From NCBI GenBank assembly GCA_934119965.1, contig CAKOTA010000006.1, positions 3,933 through 67,932 of the forward strand: 64,000 nt of DNA. Direction: 5' to 3'. Source of the stretch: an uncultured Bacilli bacterium (GTDB lineage: Bacteria; Bacillota_I; Bacilli_A; RF39; UBA660). How positions within the stretch are numbered: the stretch's first letter is position 1; the number at the start of each line of letters is the position of its first letter. A model generated the notes under the pieces. It saw only the letters and a list, made by a program, of their open reading frames with translations, had not been told where the DNA came from and made no database searches. Of this stretch, positions 12,745 to 38,794 are shown in pieces. A program made the translations under genes and the position numbers.

Positions 12745-12821
12745 GGTCCGTTGGTGAAGTGGTTTAACACGTTGCCCTCTCAAGGCAATATTCATGAGTT
12801 CGAACCTCATACGGATCACCA
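12745..12821 (+). tRNA. tRNA-Glu (anticodon CUC)
   Basis: Hand-folded cloverleaf: acceptor GGTCCGT/ACGGATC, anticodon stem TTGCC/GGCAA with loop CT-CTC-AA, T arm ATGAG-TTCGAAC-CTCAT, encoded CCA. A TGtTATAAT promoter is at 12727-12735. A hairpin terminator AAATCAATA/TATTGATTT plus T run follows. Confidence 0.85.
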
Positions 12822-12863: not shown

Positions 12864-12937
12864 GCCAATTTAGTTTAGTGGTAAAACAAATCCCTCGTAA
12901 TGATTAGAGATAAGTTCGATTCTTATAATTGGCACCA
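12864..12937 (+). tRNA. tRNA-Thr (anticodon CGU)
   Basis: Hand-folded: acceptor GCCAATT/AATTGGC, anticodon loop CT-CGT-AA (one C-U mismatch at the base of the anticodon stem), T arm ATAAG-TTCGATT-CTTAT, encoded CCA. Confidence 0.8.
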
Positions 12938-13055
12938 TATTGATACTAAACTCGAACTATAAAAGTTCGAGTTTTAAAATGATTAAATTTATGCTAAAAT
13001 ATTTGTGTAGATTAAATTCATTTTTTCAATTTAGAAACATACTTGCAAATTGACA
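12931..13055 (+). repeat. Junction element R0 (tRNA-Thr 3' end + right arm, type alpha)
   Basis: Reads GGCACCATATTGATACTAAACTCGAAC...GTTCGAGTTT hairpin, then a TGcTAAAAT box, then CAATTTAGAAACATACTTGCAAATTGACA. Confidence 0.8.
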
Positions 13056-13139
13056 TAATCAATTAGCATGCGGAATTACAGTTAGTGGTTCAATTTTAAA
13101 TAAGTTGTGATATAATAGTGAGTCAAAAGGAGGAAAAAT

Positions 13140-13799
13140 ATGATTAGTACAAGTAGTTATAATAATTGGCAATCAGATAAGTATATTACATACTCTATTT
13201 CTGGCAATCGTGGAAAAGATGCAAATTACCAAGGAAGATGCTATCCCGGGTTAGCACCAAAACTTTCTTTTTGGAAAACATGGCATGATAATATTGGAAA
13301 AGTTTCTGATGAAGAAAATAATAGATATTATGTTCAAGAATATTGGAATCAGGTATTATCAAAGTTAGATCCAGAACAAGTTTATAGGGAATTAGATTAT
13401 TCAGTATTATTATGTTATGAATCAAATGCTGAATTTTGTCATAGACATATAGTAGCTGCATGGTTTGAAATATTATTAGGTGTAAATGTCCCTGAAACAA
13501 AGGCAAATGACTATGCAATAGAAGAAGTAGAAAGACCAGCATATATTAAACAATATTTAGAAGAGGCAATGAGACATAATAGAAATATGAGAGGATTTAA
13601 TTCTTTAAGAGCATTATATTTATTTGAAAAAGGTGAGAAATTAGAGAGTTTGGCAAATGAATTAGAAGAAAAAAGCGGCAAATGTTATGGTGATTATAGA
13701 CAGGCTGCCTGCTACCTTAGATGTGATGCAGACGAAGTTGAATCAGAATATAATAAAAATCATAGTAAAAATTCATTAGTAAAAACTAAAAAAATATGA
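13140..13799 (+). CDS. DUF488-family protein with C-terminal extension (cassette A)
   Basis: LLCYESNAEFCHRHIVAAW matches the DUF488 C...CHR signature as I recall it. It has its own TGaTATAAT promoter at about 13107 and an AAAGGAGG RBS. Confidence 0.55.
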   Translation: MISTSSYNNWQSDKYITYSISGNRGKDANYQGRCYPGLAPKLSFWKTWHDNIGKVSDEENNRYYVQEYWNQVLSKLDPEQVYRELDYSVLLCYESNAEFCHRHIVAAWFEILLGVNVPETKANDYAIEEVERPAYIKQYLEEAMRHNRNMRGFNSLRALYLFEKGEKLESLANELEEKSGKCYGDYRQAACYLRCDADEVESEYNKNHSKNSLVKTKKI

Positions 13800-13822
13800 A
13801 TACTATAGTTAGTTAATAATTA

Positions 13823-13998
13823 TTACTAACTCTTTCTTTTGTTCTAGAAGTTGTTTTACTTCTTTCTTTAGGGCACCAGATTGATAGTAAACTCGAACAC
13901 TTTTATTGTTCGGGTTTTAAAATGATTAAATTTATGCTAGAATATTTGTGTAGATTAAATTCATTTTTTCAATTTAGAAACATACTTGCAAATTGACA
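13823..13998 (+). repeat. Junction element R1 (left arm + core + right arm, type alpha)
   Basis: Left arm and core read TTACTAACTCTTTCTTTTGTTCTAGAAGTTGTTTTACTTCTTTCTTTAGGGCACCAGATTGATAGTAAACTCGAAC. The right arm is nearly identical to R0. Confidence 0.85.
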
Positions 13999-14052
13999 CC
14001 AATATTAATTGATGCCAATAGTATTAATTACAATTAGAAGTTTGGTGGTAAT

Positions 14053-14757
14053 ATGACAAATAATATTAATATAAAAGATATTTCTCAAATTAATATAAAT
14101 AAAACTTTTTTTCACTATACTAATAAAAACAATTTAAATACTATTATAAAAAACGGTTTAGAGCCAAGAATAGGGAAAAATTCTTTATATGTAGAGAAAA
14201 GTAAAAAGGTATTTTTTTCTCAAGGAGGAACTGGAATATTAACTCTTATGGATGTTTGGCTAAGGTGGTTAACATCAAAATTTGGAATAAGTAATCAAAT
14301 TTATTGTTTGGGAACTTTTTATATGAGAATGCCATTATGTATTAAATGTATTCCTAATTATGTTGTTAGTAAATTTTTAAAAAGTAAAAATAAACGCATA
14401 AAAGTATTTAATCAACTTAAAAATATCTTAGATAATAGTGTTTTTTTGATTTTAGATTTAGAGGAAAATGTAGATTTTGACTACAATGATTTAGATGAAG
14501 TAAAGGAGACTTATTATGAGAGCTTTTTAAAGTTGTTATATCCTAGCGTAAGTGATTTAAAGGATAAAAAAATGGAGTATTGGAATATGCATACATACTC
14601 TAATAAGGTGATTGATAGTTCAAAAATTTCGTTATTAAAAGATAAAGATGAATATTCTGCTAGTAAGATATTAAAACAATTAATAGATGATAATATTTTA
14701 TATGTAAAACAGAATCTTGATTTTTTATATGAATATTATAACTATTTTTATAATTAA
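14053..14757 (+). CDS. Hypothetical protein (cassette B)
   Basis: 234-aa ORF. N-terminal FFHYTNKNNLNTIIKNGLEPRIG is reminiscent of the first motif of ART-fold / Tpt1 / DarT-like enzymes, but this is weak. Confidence 0.45.
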   Translation: MTNNINIKDISQININKTFFHYTNKNNLNTIIKNGLEPRIGKNSLYVEKSKKVFFSQGGTGILTLMDVWLRWLTSKFGISNQIYCLGTFYMRMPLCIKCIPNYVVSKFLKSKNKRIKVFNQLKNILDNSVFLILDLEENVDFDYNDLDEVKETYYESFLKLLYPSVSDLKDKKMEYWNMHTYSNKVIDSSKISLLKDKDEYSASKILKQLIDDNILYVKQNLDFLYEYYNYFYN

Positions 14758-14773
14758 CTATAATTTTTTGTTG

Positions 14774-14909
14774 GTTGTTCTACTTCTTTCCTTAGGGCAC
14801 CAGATTGATAGTTACTCGAATTTTTTCGAGATAACATAAAAACTACTCTCAAAATTAAATTGAAAGTAGTTTTATTTTGATAATTTAGAAACACACTTAC
14901 AAATTGACA
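14774..14909 (+). repeat. Junction element R2 (partial left arm + core + right arm, type beta)
   Basis: Reads GTTGTTCTACTTCTTTCCTTAGGGCACCAGATTGATAGTTACTCGAA, then hairpin AAAACTACT/AGTAGTTTT, then TAATTTAGAAACACACTTACAAATTGACA. Confidence 0.8.
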
Positions 14910-14945
14910 TAATCATTATGCATGTATAATAAATATTATATATTT

Positions 14946-16253
14946 TTAATCAGTTACCTTATTAAATAAACTATTCTTTATATATAATATGTCTTCTATG
15001 GATTTTCCTATATTAAATCTTCCATTTCCTACTGGATAAAAAACTGAATAACATTTATATTTTTTATTATTAATAATTTTTTCAAATTGTTTTTTTCTAC
15101 ATTGAGAAACAGATATTTTTTCATTTAGTACAATCGAACTAACTTGATTACCAAATAATACTATTACTTTTGGATTAATAATCTCAATTTCTTTTTCTAA
15201 TAAATGTAGGTATTCTTTGTAAACACTATCTGGTAATGGTCTTGCATCTATTTGTGTGCACTTTCCTAAATTAGTTATAAAATATTTGTGTTTTTTTACA
15301 TTTTCATATACAATGCTTGCAAACTCTTCAGTCCAATCAGTACCTTTAATATTTTTAATTTTATTATATATATCTTCATCAAGCATTCCGAGTGAATAAA
15401 ACAAATTCCAAATGTTTTTAGTTCCTATCCAAGGAGATTTTAATCCTTTCCAATTCTTGGAAGATGCAATATTTTTTTTTGTTGGATTCATAAATACAAA
15501 GCAAATATCAGGGTTTTTATCACATCCACCATTATAGATAGAATCTAATTCTTTAGCTCCATACTTTTGTTGCAATTTATCATACTCTTTAGTTAAATCA
15601 CCTAAAGTCATACACAACTCCTTTGTTAGCTTTTTATCTTTATTTTGTTCCATTGAAGTTATTGTATTTAATATAAAATCAAAAATATCTTTTTGTTCTA
15701 CATCCATAGTGTTTTTCTCTTCTTCTTCAGTTAATTCAGATTTAAACTTACCAACTGACTCTATTATTTGAATGGAAGCTAAAGGGTAACCTTCATCTAT
15801 TATTTCACTTTTCCTATTAGTAAATTCACGATTTGCTTTATATTCAAAAGTAAATGTATCATCACCATTAACAATAGCTACACCTTTTAGAAAATAACCA
15901 CGTAGTTTTCCATTGGCACCATATTGATTTACTAAAGAAGTATAATAATCTATCATTTCATCATCATTTAATCTTTTTCCATTTACTCTTCTTACATGAG
16001 TACCAGGTTGTATTTCATCTGGCACATCATCTAAAAATAATCCTTCATCTAAAGCAATTGTTGTCATATTACTTAAATTATTATATTCAGTAGCTTTTAT
16101 AATAGCATTTTCAATAGGATTTTTACCTGTTTCATCAACATCTGCTTCAATATTTAAATCGTTTAAGGTTACGATATCTAATCCTTTTTCTTTTAATTTT
16201 GTTCCATAATATCTAATCTTGGCTTTGTTTGTGGTTGCTAATAAATACTTCAT
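14946..16253 (-). CDS. Fusion protein: Ham1/RdgB-like non-canonical NTP pyrophosphatase (N-terminal) + uracil-DNA-glycosylase-superfamily domain (C-terminal) (cassette C)
   Basis: The N-terminus (LLATTNKAKI...DETG...ALDEGLF) has an ITPase-like pattern. The C-terminus (CFVFMNPT, YFITNLGKCTQ, PKVIVLFGNQV) has a UDG-fold pattern with divergent motifs. A TGgTATAAT promoter on the minus strand is at about 16290. Confidence 0.6.
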   Translation of the reverse strand: MKYLLATTNKAKIRYYGTKLKEKGLDIVTLNDLNIEADVDETGKNPIENAIIKATEYNNLSNMTTIALDEGLFLDDVPDEIQPGTHVRRVNGKRLNDDEMIDYYTSLVNQYGANGKLRGYFLKGVAIVNGDDTFTFEYKANREFTNRKSEIIDEGYPLASIQIIESVGKFKSELTEEEEKNTMDVEQKDIFDFILNTITSMEQNKDKKLTKELCMTLGDLTKEYDKLQQKYGAKELDSIYNGGCDKNPDICFVFMNPTKKNIASSKNWKGLKSPWIGTKNIWNLFYSLGMLDEDIYNKIKNIKGTDWTEEFASIVYENVKKHKYFITNLGKCTQIDARPLPDSVYKEYLHLLEKEIEIINPKVIVLFGNQVSSIVLNEKISVSQCRKKQFEKIINNKKYKCYSVFYPVGNGRFNIGKSIEDILYIKNSLFNKVTD

Positions 16254-16360
16254 TTTTGTACCTCCATTTTCTGTTTGATTATACCATATTTTGAGTATAT
16301 TTACTAGTTAAGTATTTTATAATTTATATTTTTATGCTATACTCGTATCAGTTAATTTTA

Positions 16361-16451
16361 TTACTAACTTTTTCTTTTGTTCGAAGAGTTGTTCTGCTTC
16401 TTTCCTTAGAGGGCATCAGATTGATTGATACTTGGACATGTCCTGAGTTTT
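16361..16451 (+). repeat. Junction element R3 (left arm + degenerate core + hairpin)
   Basis: Reads TTACTAACTTTTTCTTTTGTTCGAAGAGTTGTTCTGCTTCTTTCCTTAGAGGGCATCAGATTGATTGATACTTGGACATGTCC. The right arm is replaced. Confidence 0.7.
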
Positions 16452-16515
16452 AGTAATAGATTGCTAACAGAAATGTTAGTTTTTTTTACTTAAATCGAAA
16501 GGATGAGTAACGATT

Positions 16516-16790
16516 ATGTTTGAGATAGAAACTAAAAACTTAAAAATAAGTGATGAACTTAATAGAAAGTCGGTTTGCTTGTGTTAAATATGAATTTATA
16601 CTAGGTAATATTAAGTCAATTAAAAATACCAATGTTGCCTATGTAAAACCTCATATTTTAAAAGTTAAAGGAAATGATTACTTAATCTAGAAGAATGCAA
16701 AGAAGTCTTTATGAATGGCTATAATGACAAAATAAAACAAAAAGATTTAGAAATCTATCTAAAAAGGAAAGATAATTAACTGAATTTTAT
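16516..16790 (+). pseudogene. Decayed coding remnant (several short in-phase pieces broken by stops or frameshifts) (cassette D)
   Basis: Consecutive short protein-like reading segments in different frames (MFEIETKNLKISDELNRK..., ...YEFILGNIKSIKNTNVAYVKPHILKVKGNDY..., ...EECKEVFMNGYNDKIKQKDLEIYLKRKDN). Identity unknown. Confidence 0.3.
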
Positions 16791-16854
16791 GGTAAAATTG
16801 ATATAGGAAAACGGTTAGTCAGACTTGCCTGACTATTTAGAAAGGAGCAAAAAT

Positions 16855-17748
16855 ATGGCAAAAGACTTAGTAAAAACTGAAATAAATGTTATAGATAATA
16901 AAATAGGAATAATGAGAATTGGAGATGTTGATTATATATCACTTACTGATTTAGCAAAATATCAAAATCCAGAAGATCCATCAGGCGTAATTAGAAATTG
17001 GATGTCTAATAAAAATTCATTTGATTATTATGGTTTGTGGGAACAAATAAATAATGAAAATTTTAATTCCGTGGAATTTCACGTAATTAAAACTGAAGAA
17101 GCACCATACAATAGATTCACTATGACTCCAAAGAGATGGAAAGAGAAATTTAATGCAATAGGTATTGTTCCAAGCGCAGGAAAATATAGTGTTGGAACAT
17201 TTGCTCATCCTGATATAGCATTTGAATTTGCTAGTTGGTTAAGTCCAGAATTTAAACTTTATTTAATAAAAGAATTTGAAAGATTAAAGAAAAATGAAGC
17301 ATACCAACAAAAATTAGAATGGCATGCTAACAGGGTTTTATCAAAAGTAAATTATGTAGTTCATACAGATGCAGTTAAAAATTATATAGTTCCTATACTA
17401 ACAGAAGAACAAAAAAGATTTGTATATGCTGAAGAAGCTGATGTATTAAATGTAGCATTATTTGGAATGACTGCTAAAGAATGGAGACAAGAAAATCCAG
17501 AACTTGCTAAAAAAGGAAATATTAGAGACTATACAGATTTATTACATTTAGTAATATTAAATAATTTAGAAAATACAAATGCAGAGTTTATAAAATTAGG
17601 TATATCACAGAGTGAAAGATTAATTAGTTTAAATAATTCTGCTAGAAATCAAATGGAAATATTAAAAAATAATAATGGTATTAAAGAATTAGAATTATTA
17701 CAAGAAAGAATAAATGATAATAATAAAGTTTTGATAGAAAATAAATAG
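16855..17748 (+). CDS. KilA-N domain-containing protein (cassette D)
   Basis: The N-terminus has a KilA-N-like pattern (...VDYISLTDLAKYQ...VIRNWM...). The ATG at 16855 follows AAAGGAG; the track start at 16825 is probably too early. Confidence 0.55.
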   Translation: MAKDLVKTEINVIDNKIGIMRIGDVDYISLTDLAKYQNPEDPSGVIRNWMSNKNSFDYYGLWEQINNENFNSVEFHVIKTEEAPYNRFTMTPKRWKEKFNAIGIVPSAGKYSVGTFAHPDIAFEFASWLSPEFKLYLIKEFERLKKNEAYQQKLEWHANRVLSKVNYVVHTDAVKNYIVPILTEEQKRFVYAEEADVLNVALFGMTAKEWRQENPELAKKGNIRDYTDLLHLVILNNLENTNAEFIKLGISQSERLISLNNSARNQMEILKNNNGIKELELLQERINDNNKVLIENK

Positions 17749-17776
17749 TATTATTAATTTTATGGTGTATAATTAG

Positions 17777-18388
17777 TTTAGTGGTGCTGGGAAAACAAGT
17801 TTAGTAAATTTAATTCCGCGATTTTATGAACTGACTAGTGGAAATATTTTAATTAATGGTATTGATTACAATGAGTATTCTTTGAGTGATTTAAGAAGTA
17901 GAATAGGTTATGTTTTTCAAGATCCAATAATATTTAATATGAGTATATATGATAATCTAAAATTTGGAAATGATGATGTAACAAATGAACAAATAGAAAA
18001 AGTTTGTACTGAAATAGGACTAGATGAAAAAATTAAATCATTACCTAATGGTTATAATACATTAATTGATATATATTCAGATTTATTGTCATATGGTGAA
18101 AAACAATTGTTAAATTTTTCAAGAGAAATTTTAAGAAAAACTGATGTTATAATTCTTGATGAAGTGACATCAAATTTAGATTTGGAATTTGAAAAAAAAG
18201 TAATGATAGCTAATAAAAGAGTTTTAGAAAATAAGATTTCATTTGTTATTGCACATAGATTAAACACAATAAAGGATGCAGACTTAATTTTTTATTTACA
18301 AGATGGAATTATTAAAGAATGTGGAACTCATAAAGATTTAGTAAAATTAAAAGGCGAGTATTTTAAATTATATTTTAACAAAAAATAA
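17777..18388 (+). pseudogene. 5'-truncated ABC exporter ATPase domain (starts inside the Walker A motif)
   Basis: The frame opens at 17777 with FSGAGKTSLVNLIPRFY. It continues through the Q-loop, signature-like LSYGEKQ, Walker B ILDE and the H-loop AHR. There is no TMD, no N-terminal half and no start codon. Confidence 0.8.
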
Positions 18389-18465
18389 GTATATTTAATA
18401 AGTTTTGTGTTTAATTCTTATAGAAATTAATTTTTTAAAAAAATTTCTAAATGTCTATAACTGAC

Positions 18466-18576
18466 GCACTAGATTGATTGATACTCGAATTTTTCGAAAT
18501 AATATAAAAACTACTATCAAATTAAATTGGAAGTAGTTTTATTTTGCTAATTTATAAACATATTTGTAAATCAACA
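18466..18576 (+). repeat. Junction element R4 (core + right arm, type beta; no left arm)
   Basis: Reads GCACTAGATTGATTGATACTCGAA, then hairpin AAAACTACT/AGTAGTTTT, then TAATTTATAAACATATTTGTAAATCAACA. Confidence 0.7.
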
Positions 18577-18809: not shown

Positions 18810-19529
18810 ATGAGCAAGGAATTAAATAATAAAATTAAATTATTAATAAGTGATTATGATCAAACTTTTTATTTAAATGATGAAGATATTGAAATTAATA
18901 AAAAAGCAGTTGATAAATTTAGAAAAGATGGTAATATTTTTATAATTGCTACTGGTAGAAGTTATATGGATTTTCATAATAAAGTAGATATGTATAATTT
19001 TAAATATGATTATGTAATTATTAATCATGGCGCAACAATATTAGATAAAAACGATAATGTATTTGCAAACTTTTCTATAGACAATAAAATAATAAATAAT
19101 ATAAAGGAAGATTTGCAATTAGAAAAATCAATAAAGGGTTTTTGTTGTAGTAAATTAGAAAGTAGGGTTGACTTTGAACATGATGATCTAACAAAGATAA
19201 ATGTTAGATATAATTCAAAAGAAGAAGCAATAGTTATTAACGAAATAATAAATAATAAATATCAAGATTATATTAATTCTTATTATGTTACTGAAAATTC
19301 ATTAGAAATAATTTCAAATAAAACAAATAAGTCAAATGCTATAAAGTTATTACTTGGTAAATTAAATATATTACAAGAAAATGTTTATACAATTGGCGAT
19401 GGTTATAGTGATATAGAAATGGTTAAAGATTTTAATGGATATGCTATGGTTAATTCAGTAGATGAATTAAAAAGGGTCGCCATAAAGGAACATAAAAGTG
19501 TTTCTGACTTAATAGAAGAAATAATATAG
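18810..19529 (+). CDS. Cof-type HAD-IIB phosphatase
   Basis: Carries DYDQTF (DxD-like), ATGRS and GDGYSDIEM motifs. Confidence 0.7.
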   Translation: MSKELNNKIKLLISDYDQTFYLNDEDIEINKKAVDKFRKDGNIFIIATGRSYMDFHNKVDMYNFKYDYVIINHGATILDKNDNVFANFSIDNKIINNIKEDLQLEKSIKGFCCSKLESRVDFEHDDLTKINVRYNSKEEAIVINEIINNKYQDYINSYYVTENSLEIISNKTNKSNAIKLLLGKLNILQENVYTIGDGYSDIEMVKDFNGYAMVNSVDELKRVAIKEHKSVSDLIEEII

Positions 19530-28904: not shown

Positions 28905-29040
28905 TTAGATTGTTCGTGAAAAAATATGTACCGTAGACAGTAGGAGCAAACAAGGCTTAATTACCTACCGAGGACTTTATAATAAAGATCTTTGGTCCCT
29001 TACTGTAATTAAGTAAGGGATTTTTTACGGAATAAAACTT
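28905..29040 (+). promoter_or_regulatory. Probable L10 (rplJ) leader with attenuator hairpin
   Basis: Structured leader ending in CCCTTACT/AGTAAGGG (28997-19) plus a T6 run, immediately before the rplJ RBS. The position matches the Firmicute L10 leader. Confidence 0.45.
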
Positions 29041-38703: not shown

Positions 38704-38794
38704 GGAGTAGTACTCAAGAGGCTGAAGAGGCGCCCCTGCTAAGGGTGTAGGTCGGGCAACTGGCGCGGAGGTTCAAATCCTCTCTACTCCGCCA
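38704..38794 (+). tRNA. tRNA-Ser (anticodon GCU)
   Basis: Acceptor GGAGTAG/CTACTCC, anticodon loop CT-GCT-AA, long variable arm, T loop TTCAAAT, encoded CCA. Confidence 0.85.

Follow-up and report, generated by a model that had tools for sequence, protein, structure and literature searches.

A tandem array of core-bounded units behind a tRNA-Thr gene of an uncultured gut Bacilli bacterium: a probable accretion island at the attachment site of a large serine recombinase element family

The DNA examined was a window of 64 kb (~25% G+C) from an uncultured low-GC gut Bacilli bacterium, and all statements on the recombinases of this genome refer to this window. Between a tRNA-Thr(CGT) gene and a haloacid dehalogenase (HAD) hydrolase gene, it carries a tandem array in which four units are bounded by five copies of a junction element (R0 to R4, 12931–18576). 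The array is probably an accretion island, built up where a family of mobile elements encoding large serine recombinases (LSRs) has its attachment site. The tRNA-Thr gene (12864..12937, + strand; ARAGORN and Rfam) follows a tRNA-Glu gene (12745–12821; ARAGORN). Its segment from the T-arm to the CCA end represents the left (B) half of the proposed attachment site, and the array has its fixed left boundary there. The flanks of the array were core genes, with murT/gatD on the left and the HAD hydrolase gene (18810–19529), cvpA, thioredoxin and recD2 on the right.

A repeat search of the window recovered all of the junction families that a first-pass annotation, made from the sequence alone, had described. 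The core copies were located at 12931, 13872, 14797, 16413, and 18466. As that annotation had stated, the GGCACCA of R0 was the 3′ end of tRNA-Thr(CGT). No chance matches were expected for the 27-nt core or the 28-nt arm end, based on 100 shuffles. A profile hidden Markov model (HMM) of ~120 junctions matched the 64-kb window solely at 12930, 13871, 14794, 16411, and 18465, which means that the cores of the window were confined to the array and not dispersed in the manner of a repetitive extragenic palindromic (REP)-like repeat. In the same search, the tRNA-Ser gene at 38704 was without a junction core.

All five junctions were read on the + strand. R0 (12931..13055) comprises GGCACCA, the core TATTGATACTAAACTCGAAC, a hairpin, and an alpha arm of family 0 with the terminal palindrome TCAATTTAGAAACATACTTGCAAATTGA. 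R1 (13820..13998) starts with a non-tRNA left (P) arm bearing a T-arm-like hairpin (AGAAG/CTTCT), followed by GGGCACCA, the core, a hairpin and an alpha arm. R2 (14770..14909) has a short P arm, GGGCACCA, the core, and a beta arm, likewise of family 0, with a AAAACTACT/AGTAGTTTT hairpin. R3 (16358..16495) is made up of a P arm, GGGCATCA, the core and a left-end arm typical of LSR-encoding integrative and mobilisable elements (IMEs; family 1, AGTAATAGATTGCTAACAGAAATGTTAGTTTTTTT). R4 (18396..18576), the junction nearest to the HAD hydrolase gene, shows a left arm of the right-end type of intact LSR-MobV IMEs, then CGCACTA, the core and a degenerate beta arm.

The alpha arm was common to R0 and R1 (94% over 100 nt) and the beta arm to R2 and R4 (84–93%), as had been proposed, but the scheme of only two arm types did not hold since R3 carries a third type that had been left unclassified. 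The left arm ascribed to R1–R3 was common to R1 and R3 (87% over 52 nt), whereas R2 possessed its proximal ~25 nt alone (63%), and the left arm of R4 belonged to a different family. The arm end attributed to both arm types is an imperfect palindrome (TCAATTTAGAAACATACTTGCAAATTGA); it was found in R0, R1 and R2 (13026–13053, 13969–13996, and 14882–14909) but was degenerate in R4 (18549–18576). This palindrome sits ~30 nt downstream of a TGnTAnAAT box and is conserved across species before unrelated genes. An operator, a hairpin in RNA or a further site for protein binding are conceivable roles.

A hairpin on the right side of the core was common among junctions, but the compensating partners claimed for it were not supported: in 111 distinct junctions, variant left halves paired at 5.81 of 7 positions with their own partner and at 5.78 with the partners of others, a difference that was not significant. 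The promoter-like boxes fared no better (46 matches vs. 53 in shuffles), and the promoter and terminator scans showed no enrichment in this AT-rich DNA. Rfam detected only tRNAs and an L10 leader in the window, and no known RNA family at the junctions. The L10 leader (28913–29035; 74.8 bits), upstream of the rplJ region, is ordinary and has no relation to the array.

The cargo identities given by the first-pass annotation were confirmed by Pfam. The first unit encodes a DUF488-N3a protein of 219 aa (13140..13799, +), and the second a protein of 234 aa without a Pfam family (14053..14757, +), whose homologs are situated near cores at tRNA-Leu in other species. The third unit encodes a Ham1 (ITPase)-UDG fusion of 435 aa on the opposite strand (14946..16253, −), which had one and the same context in all recovered copies. 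The fourth unit contains a KilA-N protein of 297 aa (16855..17748, +) and the C-terminal fragment of an ABC exporter ATPase from a truncated gene (17780..18388, +), which covers only profile positions 20–137 of ABC_tran. Full-length ATPase homologs of 529–586 aa occurred in other arrays. A KilA-N homolog was found directly after tRNA-Leu(caa) in locus L103, and an exact-protein lookup returned no record of an identical protein. The KilA-N protein matched the PADLOC candidate defense system PDC-S22 over its full length (E = 2e-113). The suggested phage-conflict flavor is plausible for part of the cargo, but it is not general. The recurrent cargo families across arrays were HD, GNAT, NUDIX, metallophosphatase, MBL and HTH (top Pfam families among 148 open reading frames, ORFs). 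Another long tandem array (L147; 114–1659 and 3872–12321) contained three junction types and two decayed LSR elements, and its HipA_2 plus DUF3037 pair matched the PADLOC candidate system PDC-M66 (PDC-M66A/B).

To place the array in its lineage, one genome per species was scanned with the junction pattern GCACCANATTGATN{4,8}CTCGAA. At least 120 stretches matched, and 98 of those listed were in low-GC gut metagenome-assembled genomes, whose labels were uncultured Bacilli, Tenericutes, Mycoplasma or Erysipelotrichaceae. The matches in high-GC genomes were chance matches inside genes. A scan of viral contigs for a phage origin likewise returned only high-GC chance matches inside genes. Among the low-GC loci of the matches listed, the core came directly after tRNA-Thr(ggt) at no fewer than 19 junctions, tRNA-Thr(cgt) at no fewer than seven and tRNA-Thr(tgt) at one or more; tRNA-Leu(caa) at a minimum of 15, tRNA-Leu(tag) at eight or more and tRNA-Arg(acg) at three or more; and a non-tRNA left arm at no fewer than 46. 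By a looser criterion, it was also found after tRNA-Arg(cct), tRNA-Lys(ttt), and tRNA-Leu(gag).

At least 14 loci in other species contained several cores each (two to three, or up to five), with a spacing of 257–4670 nt and one or two genes in between, and thus the array of the window is one instance of a common architecture. The median core spacing was about 1.1 kb. For example, in L067 a tRNA-Arg(cct) gene is followed by an array with genes of 303, 222, and 189 aa. The family-0 right arms, to which the alpha and beta arms belong, preceded 31 distinct gene clusters in 33 cases and, among the matches listed, never an LSR gene or the remnant of a small ORF.

A third common right arm (family 2, AAAACGACTTGTCAAAAAGTCGTTTTTATGTTATTATGAATATGTCAAGGAAACTTGCATAAAATAAAAAAGG; L012, L013, L022, L024, L025, L041, L052 and others) was absent from the window. 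It is followed by 150–950 nt without an ORF of at least 70 aa, a stretch that may hold a small RNA or small ORFs. To the right of a tRNA-Leu(caa) core in L038, five tandem copies of AAAGCAAATAT were located inside such an arm. In L046, an ORF for a reverse transcriptase (956–2017; RVT_1, E = 2e-17) was situated beside an IME-type arm with an interrupted terminator hairpin, and it may be a group II intron or retron-like insertion.

The ORFs of the junction loci were clustered, and recombinases were counted in 103 related loci by a motif screen and an iterated profile (HMM) census. Just right of the cores, a cluster of ORFs of 600–646 aa recurred, which carried Resolvase, Recombinase and zinc-ribbon domains. 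The 646-aa LSR matched PF00239 (1.4e-34), PF07508 (1.2e-17) and, weakly, PF13408, and its nearest solved structure was the catalytic domain of TP901-1 integrase. The gene order of these IMEs was a small ORF of ~89 aa, which matched no Pfam family, the LSR gene and a Mob_Pre (MobV) relaxase gene. A complete element of 4.7 kb was present in L083, with the small ORF, LSR, MobV and one further gene, and its two boundary junctions had only GCACCA in common.

Serine recombinases were found in 11 of the 103 loci, and nearly all of them either lay to the right of a core at a distance of 0.4–1 kb or were part of a core-bounded element. The same loci contained three tyrosine recombinases, of which two were Xer-like and kilobases away, and none was IntI-like by position. 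The remaining one, a phage-type tyrosine integrase (L022, 7411–7998, −), ends ~100 nt before a junction whose left arm resembles a partial tRNA acceptor end, which indicates that at least one tyrosine-integrase element uses the same hotspot. Ten integrase-sized ORFs near cores turned out to be ordinary enzymes or unknowns and one reverse transcriptase; none was an integrase. Because serine recombinases occurred in 11 loci and only one integrase abutted a junction, the LSR is a much stronger candidate than any other for the recombinase that acts on the junctions.

Apparently intact LSRs (600–646 aa) were present in several species, among them those of L083 (2683–4623) and L105 (3384–5276). A homolog search with the LSR N-terminus returned short fragments alone, and Resolvase-domain stubs of 102–145 aa were widespread on long contigs. 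One of these stubs (P0026, 132 aa; L153–L157, 8001–8399) was indexed in 133 blocks. In L153–L157, downstream of tRNA-Gly(gcc), the LSR gene was split into pieces of 132, 172, and 63 aa beside an intact MobV gene, and it appears that some species have decayed IMEs in a fixed state.

None of the ORFs of the 64-kb window contained an LSR, a MobV relaxase, a recombinase motif or a tyrosine-recombinase box II motif, in agreement with the first-pass annotation, which had called the array integrase-less. All four units are core-bounded, and their P arms belong to the same families as the right ends of IMEs. The right-arm type of R3 preceded the small ORF and an LSR in 10 of 26 cases. Just after it lies a frameshifted pseudogene of the ~89-aa small ORF of the IMEs (16516..16764, +; tblastn, up to 87% identity over 39 aa, E = 2e-20). 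At the other end, the left arm of R4 aligned with the right-end arm of the intact IME in L082 and its relatives (83% mean column identity). An IME left arm, a small-ORF pseudogene and an IME right arm together indicate that R3–R4 (~2 kb) is a decayed IME keeping both ends. Judged by these sequence features, unit 4 is a cis-mobilisable element (CIME) that lacks the LSR and the relaxase, and the description of the units as miniature cassettes does not apply to it. Its junctions R3 and R4 carried mutated CCA motifs (GCATCA and GCACTA), and R0–R2 kept consensus cores. Units 1–3 are not obviously decayed versions of known IMEs, because their family-0 arms never precede an LSR or small-ORF remnant.

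The geometry of the junctions may be that of a serine integrase site. In 54 of 61 tRNA-borne arms, the G of the T-loop GTTC lies 24 nt from the CCA end, and in 30 of 53 P arms an RGTT motif lies at 28–29 nt. On the right, CTCGAAC, the reverse complement of GTTCGAG, was at a fixed position of +12/13, and TCG(A/C)AC had an unchanged offset in every right-arm type (I, II, and III). A dyad-symmetry scan of 51 non-tRNA junctions gave a single maximum between the C and A of GCACCA (0.39 complementary vs. ~0.26), with half-sites of ~24 bp. The attP of serine integrases, of which A118/LI is an example, forms an imperfect palindrome of ~50 bp, and the half-sites of attB have the zinc-ribbon-domain motif ~5 bp nearer to the center. 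The offset between tRNA and P arms (24 vs. 28–29 nt) fits this half-site rule. The site may thus be read as an imperfect palindrome centered on the CA of GCACCA, its left half being either the B arm of the tRNA or a T-arm mimic 4–5 bp further out, and its right half containing TCGAAC at +13 to +19. The crossover would be located within the short repeat. An unoccupied attB or B′ arm was not found, as every tRNA of a targeted kind that was seen had a P′-like arm after it.

The content of the array differed between strains, as emerged from a comparison of contigs that encode exactly the same flanking proteins as the window. Among the samples, at least seven sequences followed the identical tRNA-Thr 3′ end. 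All of them diverged right after GGCACCA, and they were grouped in six states. The alpha arm with DUF488 was found in the window; a type-II arm with a 236-aa gene and an HD-domain gene in L133; the 234-aa gene directly in L134 and L140, which differ from each other at the first base past CCA; another family-0 cassette in L135; a type-III arm with the small ORF and a serine-recombinase N-terminus (MEEQKKVIAGLYPRVSTEDQ...) in L136 and L139; and a type-II arm with a decayed IME containing MobV fragments in L137 and L141. L139 is conspecific, and it has the small ORF and ...LYPRVSTEDQ... at this tRNA-Thr. In a sister lineage (L171; flank 88% identical), the small ORF, LSR and MobV were located at the orthologous tRNA. 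Gut metagenomes that contain the species of the window and have an LSR element at the site include ERZ27287094 and SRR27430459. The earlier prediction of a recombinase encoded elsewhere was thus supported by LSRs on IMEs that share the att arms and occupy this very tRNA-Thr in conspecific and sister strains.

In L002 and L161, an identical DUF488 protein lay downstream of another unit. The DUF488 cassette there had its R0 arm intact from the first base past CCA, and the tRNA was replaced by a P arm and a unit of AAA_18 and an ABC exporter, as would be expected if elements insert at the tRNA-proximal boundary. L003 had a different unit upstream of the decayed IME, and L005 was without units 3 and 4. 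Several contigs broke exactly at junctions (L006 and L007 at R4). A metagenome scan with the tRNA-Thr 3′ end returned a single contig.

Insertions and replacements broke at GCACCA, but two losses did not. In L134/L140, the hairpin of R0 was kept and the switch to R1 sequence occurred 35–60 nt right of CCA. In L005, the sequence followed R2 to about +38 and R4 by about +50. Site-specific deletion was rejected for these alleles, for the product of a GCACCA crossover (left arm plus complete distal right arm) was not observed. The arm-end palindrome was also rejected as a crossover site, since L005 switches arm type before it. L005 (1571 onward) departs from the window (19535 onward) directly past the stop codon of the HAD hydrolase gene and has different genes ahead of cvpA. 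The distal edge of the array thus shows a further indel polymorphism, one without a junction core.

These observations support the tandem accretion at a tRNA 3′ end, with attP-like internal junctions, that the first-pass annotation had proposed. In the reading that we consider probable, small IMEs (small ORF, LSR of ~600–650 aa, MobV and little cargo) would enter tRNA-Thr, -Leu, -Arg, -Lys, and -Gly genes precisely at the CCA end, and they would do so in dozens of gut species. Each insertion would keep the tRNA intact and again followed by a P′-type right arm resembling the earlier one. By this presumed regeneration the tRNA-proximal site would stay usable, with the newest elements next to the tRNA and the older ones pushed distally. 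Recombinase genes would often decay and leave att-flanked units. The window would then hold three recombinase-less one-gene family-0 cassettes and one CIME. Such units would be immobile alone, and only an LSR from an incoming or neighboring IME could excise or co-mobilise them. Homologous recombination between arms would prune the array.

Several points weigh against this accretion by LSR elements. Canonical LSRs recombine attP with attB only, and repeated insertion beside an attL-like site would thus need a relaxed enzyme, as Ccr is, or B′ = P′. Neither an excised circle nor an empty attB was seen in the assemblies. The breakpoints of the two cassette losses lie inside the arms, and both losses are best explained by homologous recombination between similar arms, not by site-specific excision. 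The junctions were ascertained with a pattern that needs GCACCA.ATTGAT and covers −6 to +19, so that the conservation in this range is partly circular. The tyrosine integrase of L022 abuts one junction. Many LSR genes of the lineage are truncated stubs, and much of the system may be fossil. Finally, the LSR search for this genome covered the 64-kb window.

We also entertain, tentatively, that the array belongs to a dedicated cassette system, an LSR counterpart of the integron. Here, a family-0 expression/att module with terminator, promoter-like box and palindrome, one gene and a T-arm-mimic P arm would form a purpose-built cassette, which the LSRs of IMEs would excise as a circle and then capture and shuffle in trans at tRNA CCA ends. 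The lineage would thereby possess a store of accessory and defense genes that can be reshuffled. The generic arm in front of 31 distinct gene clusters in 33 cases, never with LSR or small-ORF remnants, argues that these units are not simply decayed known IMEs. The small cassettes with their spacing of about 1.1 kb, the arrays at several tRNAs in many species, the P arms of IME right-end families, the tRNA-proximal position of recombinase-less cassettes in L133 and L135, and the match of part of the cargo to defense candidates all agree with such a system. However, the search for one and the same cassette in two independent contexts found none, and the cargo homologs elsewhere were 32–80% identical. 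Circular forms were not seen, and the losses that were seen are attributed to homologous recombination. In addition, the family-0 arms could stem from the native downstream flanks of tRNAs.

Somewhat more doubtful is that the array is a fossil island, the product of past insertions with nothing mobilisable now, in which the present variation comes from homologous recombination, deletion and lineage sorting. The window without a recombinase, the decayed IME in the fourth unit, the mutated CCA motifs of R3 and R4, the widespread LSR stubs and the homologous nature of both analyzed deletions are what this explanation expects. On the other hand, seven alternative first elements after an identical tRNA with an identical flanking protein indicate recent insertions. 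Apparently intact LSRs exist in several species, and R0–R2 retain consensus cores.

It is improbable that a tyrosine integrase acting at the tRNA 3′ end moves the cassettes and that the LSR elements are merely another tenant of the hotspot. The tRNA 3′ ends are classical targets of tyrosine integrases, whereas IMEs with serine recombinases are usually located within genes and have very short repeats (PMC5704250), and the Phage_integrase gene of L022 ends 100 nt before a junction. Against this, the iterated profile search found one such gene near a core and 11 loci with serine recombinases, and the ten integrase-sized ORFs near cores included no integrase. The direct repeat around the complete L083 element was GCACCA alone, the P arms were spaced mimics and not copies of the tRNA end, and the remnants in the window were of the LSR-IME type. 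That the junction is a tRNA trailer, a terminator or a REP-like regulatory repeat, its copies being degenerate tRNA remnants, is largely refuted and very improbable: the motif does follow many tRNAs directly, with a hairpin and T-run in many copies and promoter-like boxes in the arms, but the five copies of the window are all in the array, junctions bound complete LSR elements, the left arms are conserved families offset by 4–5 bp from real tRNAs, and the content between copies varies among strains with sharp breaks at GCACCA.

The first-pass annotation had known of no comparable system in this lineage, but close analogues exist in CIME accretion, the staphylococcal cassette chromosome (SCC) with its psiSCC, the Dehalococcoides ssrA islands and the tycheposons. 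Tandem accretion with recombinase-less CIMEs has been described for streptococcal integrative and conjugative elements and IMEs, in the ICESt1/ICESt3 family of Streptococcus thermophilus, where a CIME keeps both att ends but has no recombination or transfer genes (PMC5704250). As proposed for the present array, recombinase-less att-flanked units stand in tandem at the target of related elements, arise by adjacent integration and decay, and can be mobilised only with the recombinase of a neighbor. The classical cases involve tyrosine integrases and elements of many kilobases, whereas here an LSR and the CCA end of several tRNAs are implicated, and most units are of one gene (0.25–2 kb), their generic arm not looking like the end of a decayed IME.

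The composite SCC islands at rlmH (orfX) of staphylococci include ccr-less psiSCC (10.1101/336396; PMC6243372). They share with our array the LSRs, the targeting of the 3′ end of a conserved gene that remains intact, the tandem elements with and without a recombinase, the short repeats and the strain-variable cargo. The present system differs in its tRNA-Thr target instead of rlmH, far smaller elements, MobV in the autonomous members and an uncultured gut host. In Dehalococcoides, the ssrA islands have a serine recombinase that is CcrB-like, and they form tandem arrays in which some islands are without the integration module (PMC3146451). Their target resembles a tRNA gene as well: they enter the 3′ end of the tmRNA gene in its T-loop region, and their arrays are marked by 3′-end repeats. 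However, these islands use the single target ssrA, a 20-bp direct repeat and a six-gene integration module, and they are many kilobases long; the present family shows multiple tRNA targets, a repeat of ~6 bp with structured arms, and one-gene units.

The tycheposon islands of Prochlorococcus show the same proximal-insertion dynamics with tyrosine recombinases (10.1101/2020.12.28.424599). Insertion next to the tRNA moves the older content away from it, partial tRNA-like repeats build up along with degenerate elements, and strain heterogeneity is highest beside the tRNA. Tycheposons comprise a clade of tyrosine recombinases (474/501), replication modules and true partial-tRNA repeats, in contrast to the serine recombinase and the offset mimics found here.

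The likeness to integrons and to clusters of attC sites lacking integron-integrases, which had led the first-pass annotation to call the array integron-like, lies in promoter-poor single-gene cassettes, structured recombination sites between them and an array without a recombinase. An integron-like mechanism was not supported, for IntI was absent from the window and from the related loci, and the array lacks attC sites (RYYYAAC...GTTRRRY, folded bottom strand), attI and Pc. Read directly, the junction motifs GCACCA, GATTGAT and CTCGAAC/GTTCGAG do not match RYYYAAC/GTTRRRY, as had been noted before. In addition, each cassette here comes with a promoter-like arm of its own, and one of the genes has the reverse orientation. 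Literature searches on this lineage and on LSRs at tRNA ends found no account of such a system.

If the reading of the array as an accretion island is true, LSRs would use the CCA end of several tRNA genes as their target and leave these genes intact, a niche normally credited to tyrosine integrases, and an element arm would mimic the tRNA T-arm with the offset that follows from the half-site rule for attP and attB. These compact LSRs with natural sites of ~45–50 bp could be tested as genome-engineering tools and as genetic handles for a lineage without cultured representatives. If the array instead belongs to a dedicated cassette system, a serine-recombinase counterpart of the integron would be widespread in an uncultured lineage of the human gut. 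In the accretion-island reading, accretion would be miniaturised to single-gene cassettes, and it would provide a strain-variable reservoir of accessory and candidate defense genes for gut Bacilli with small genomes.

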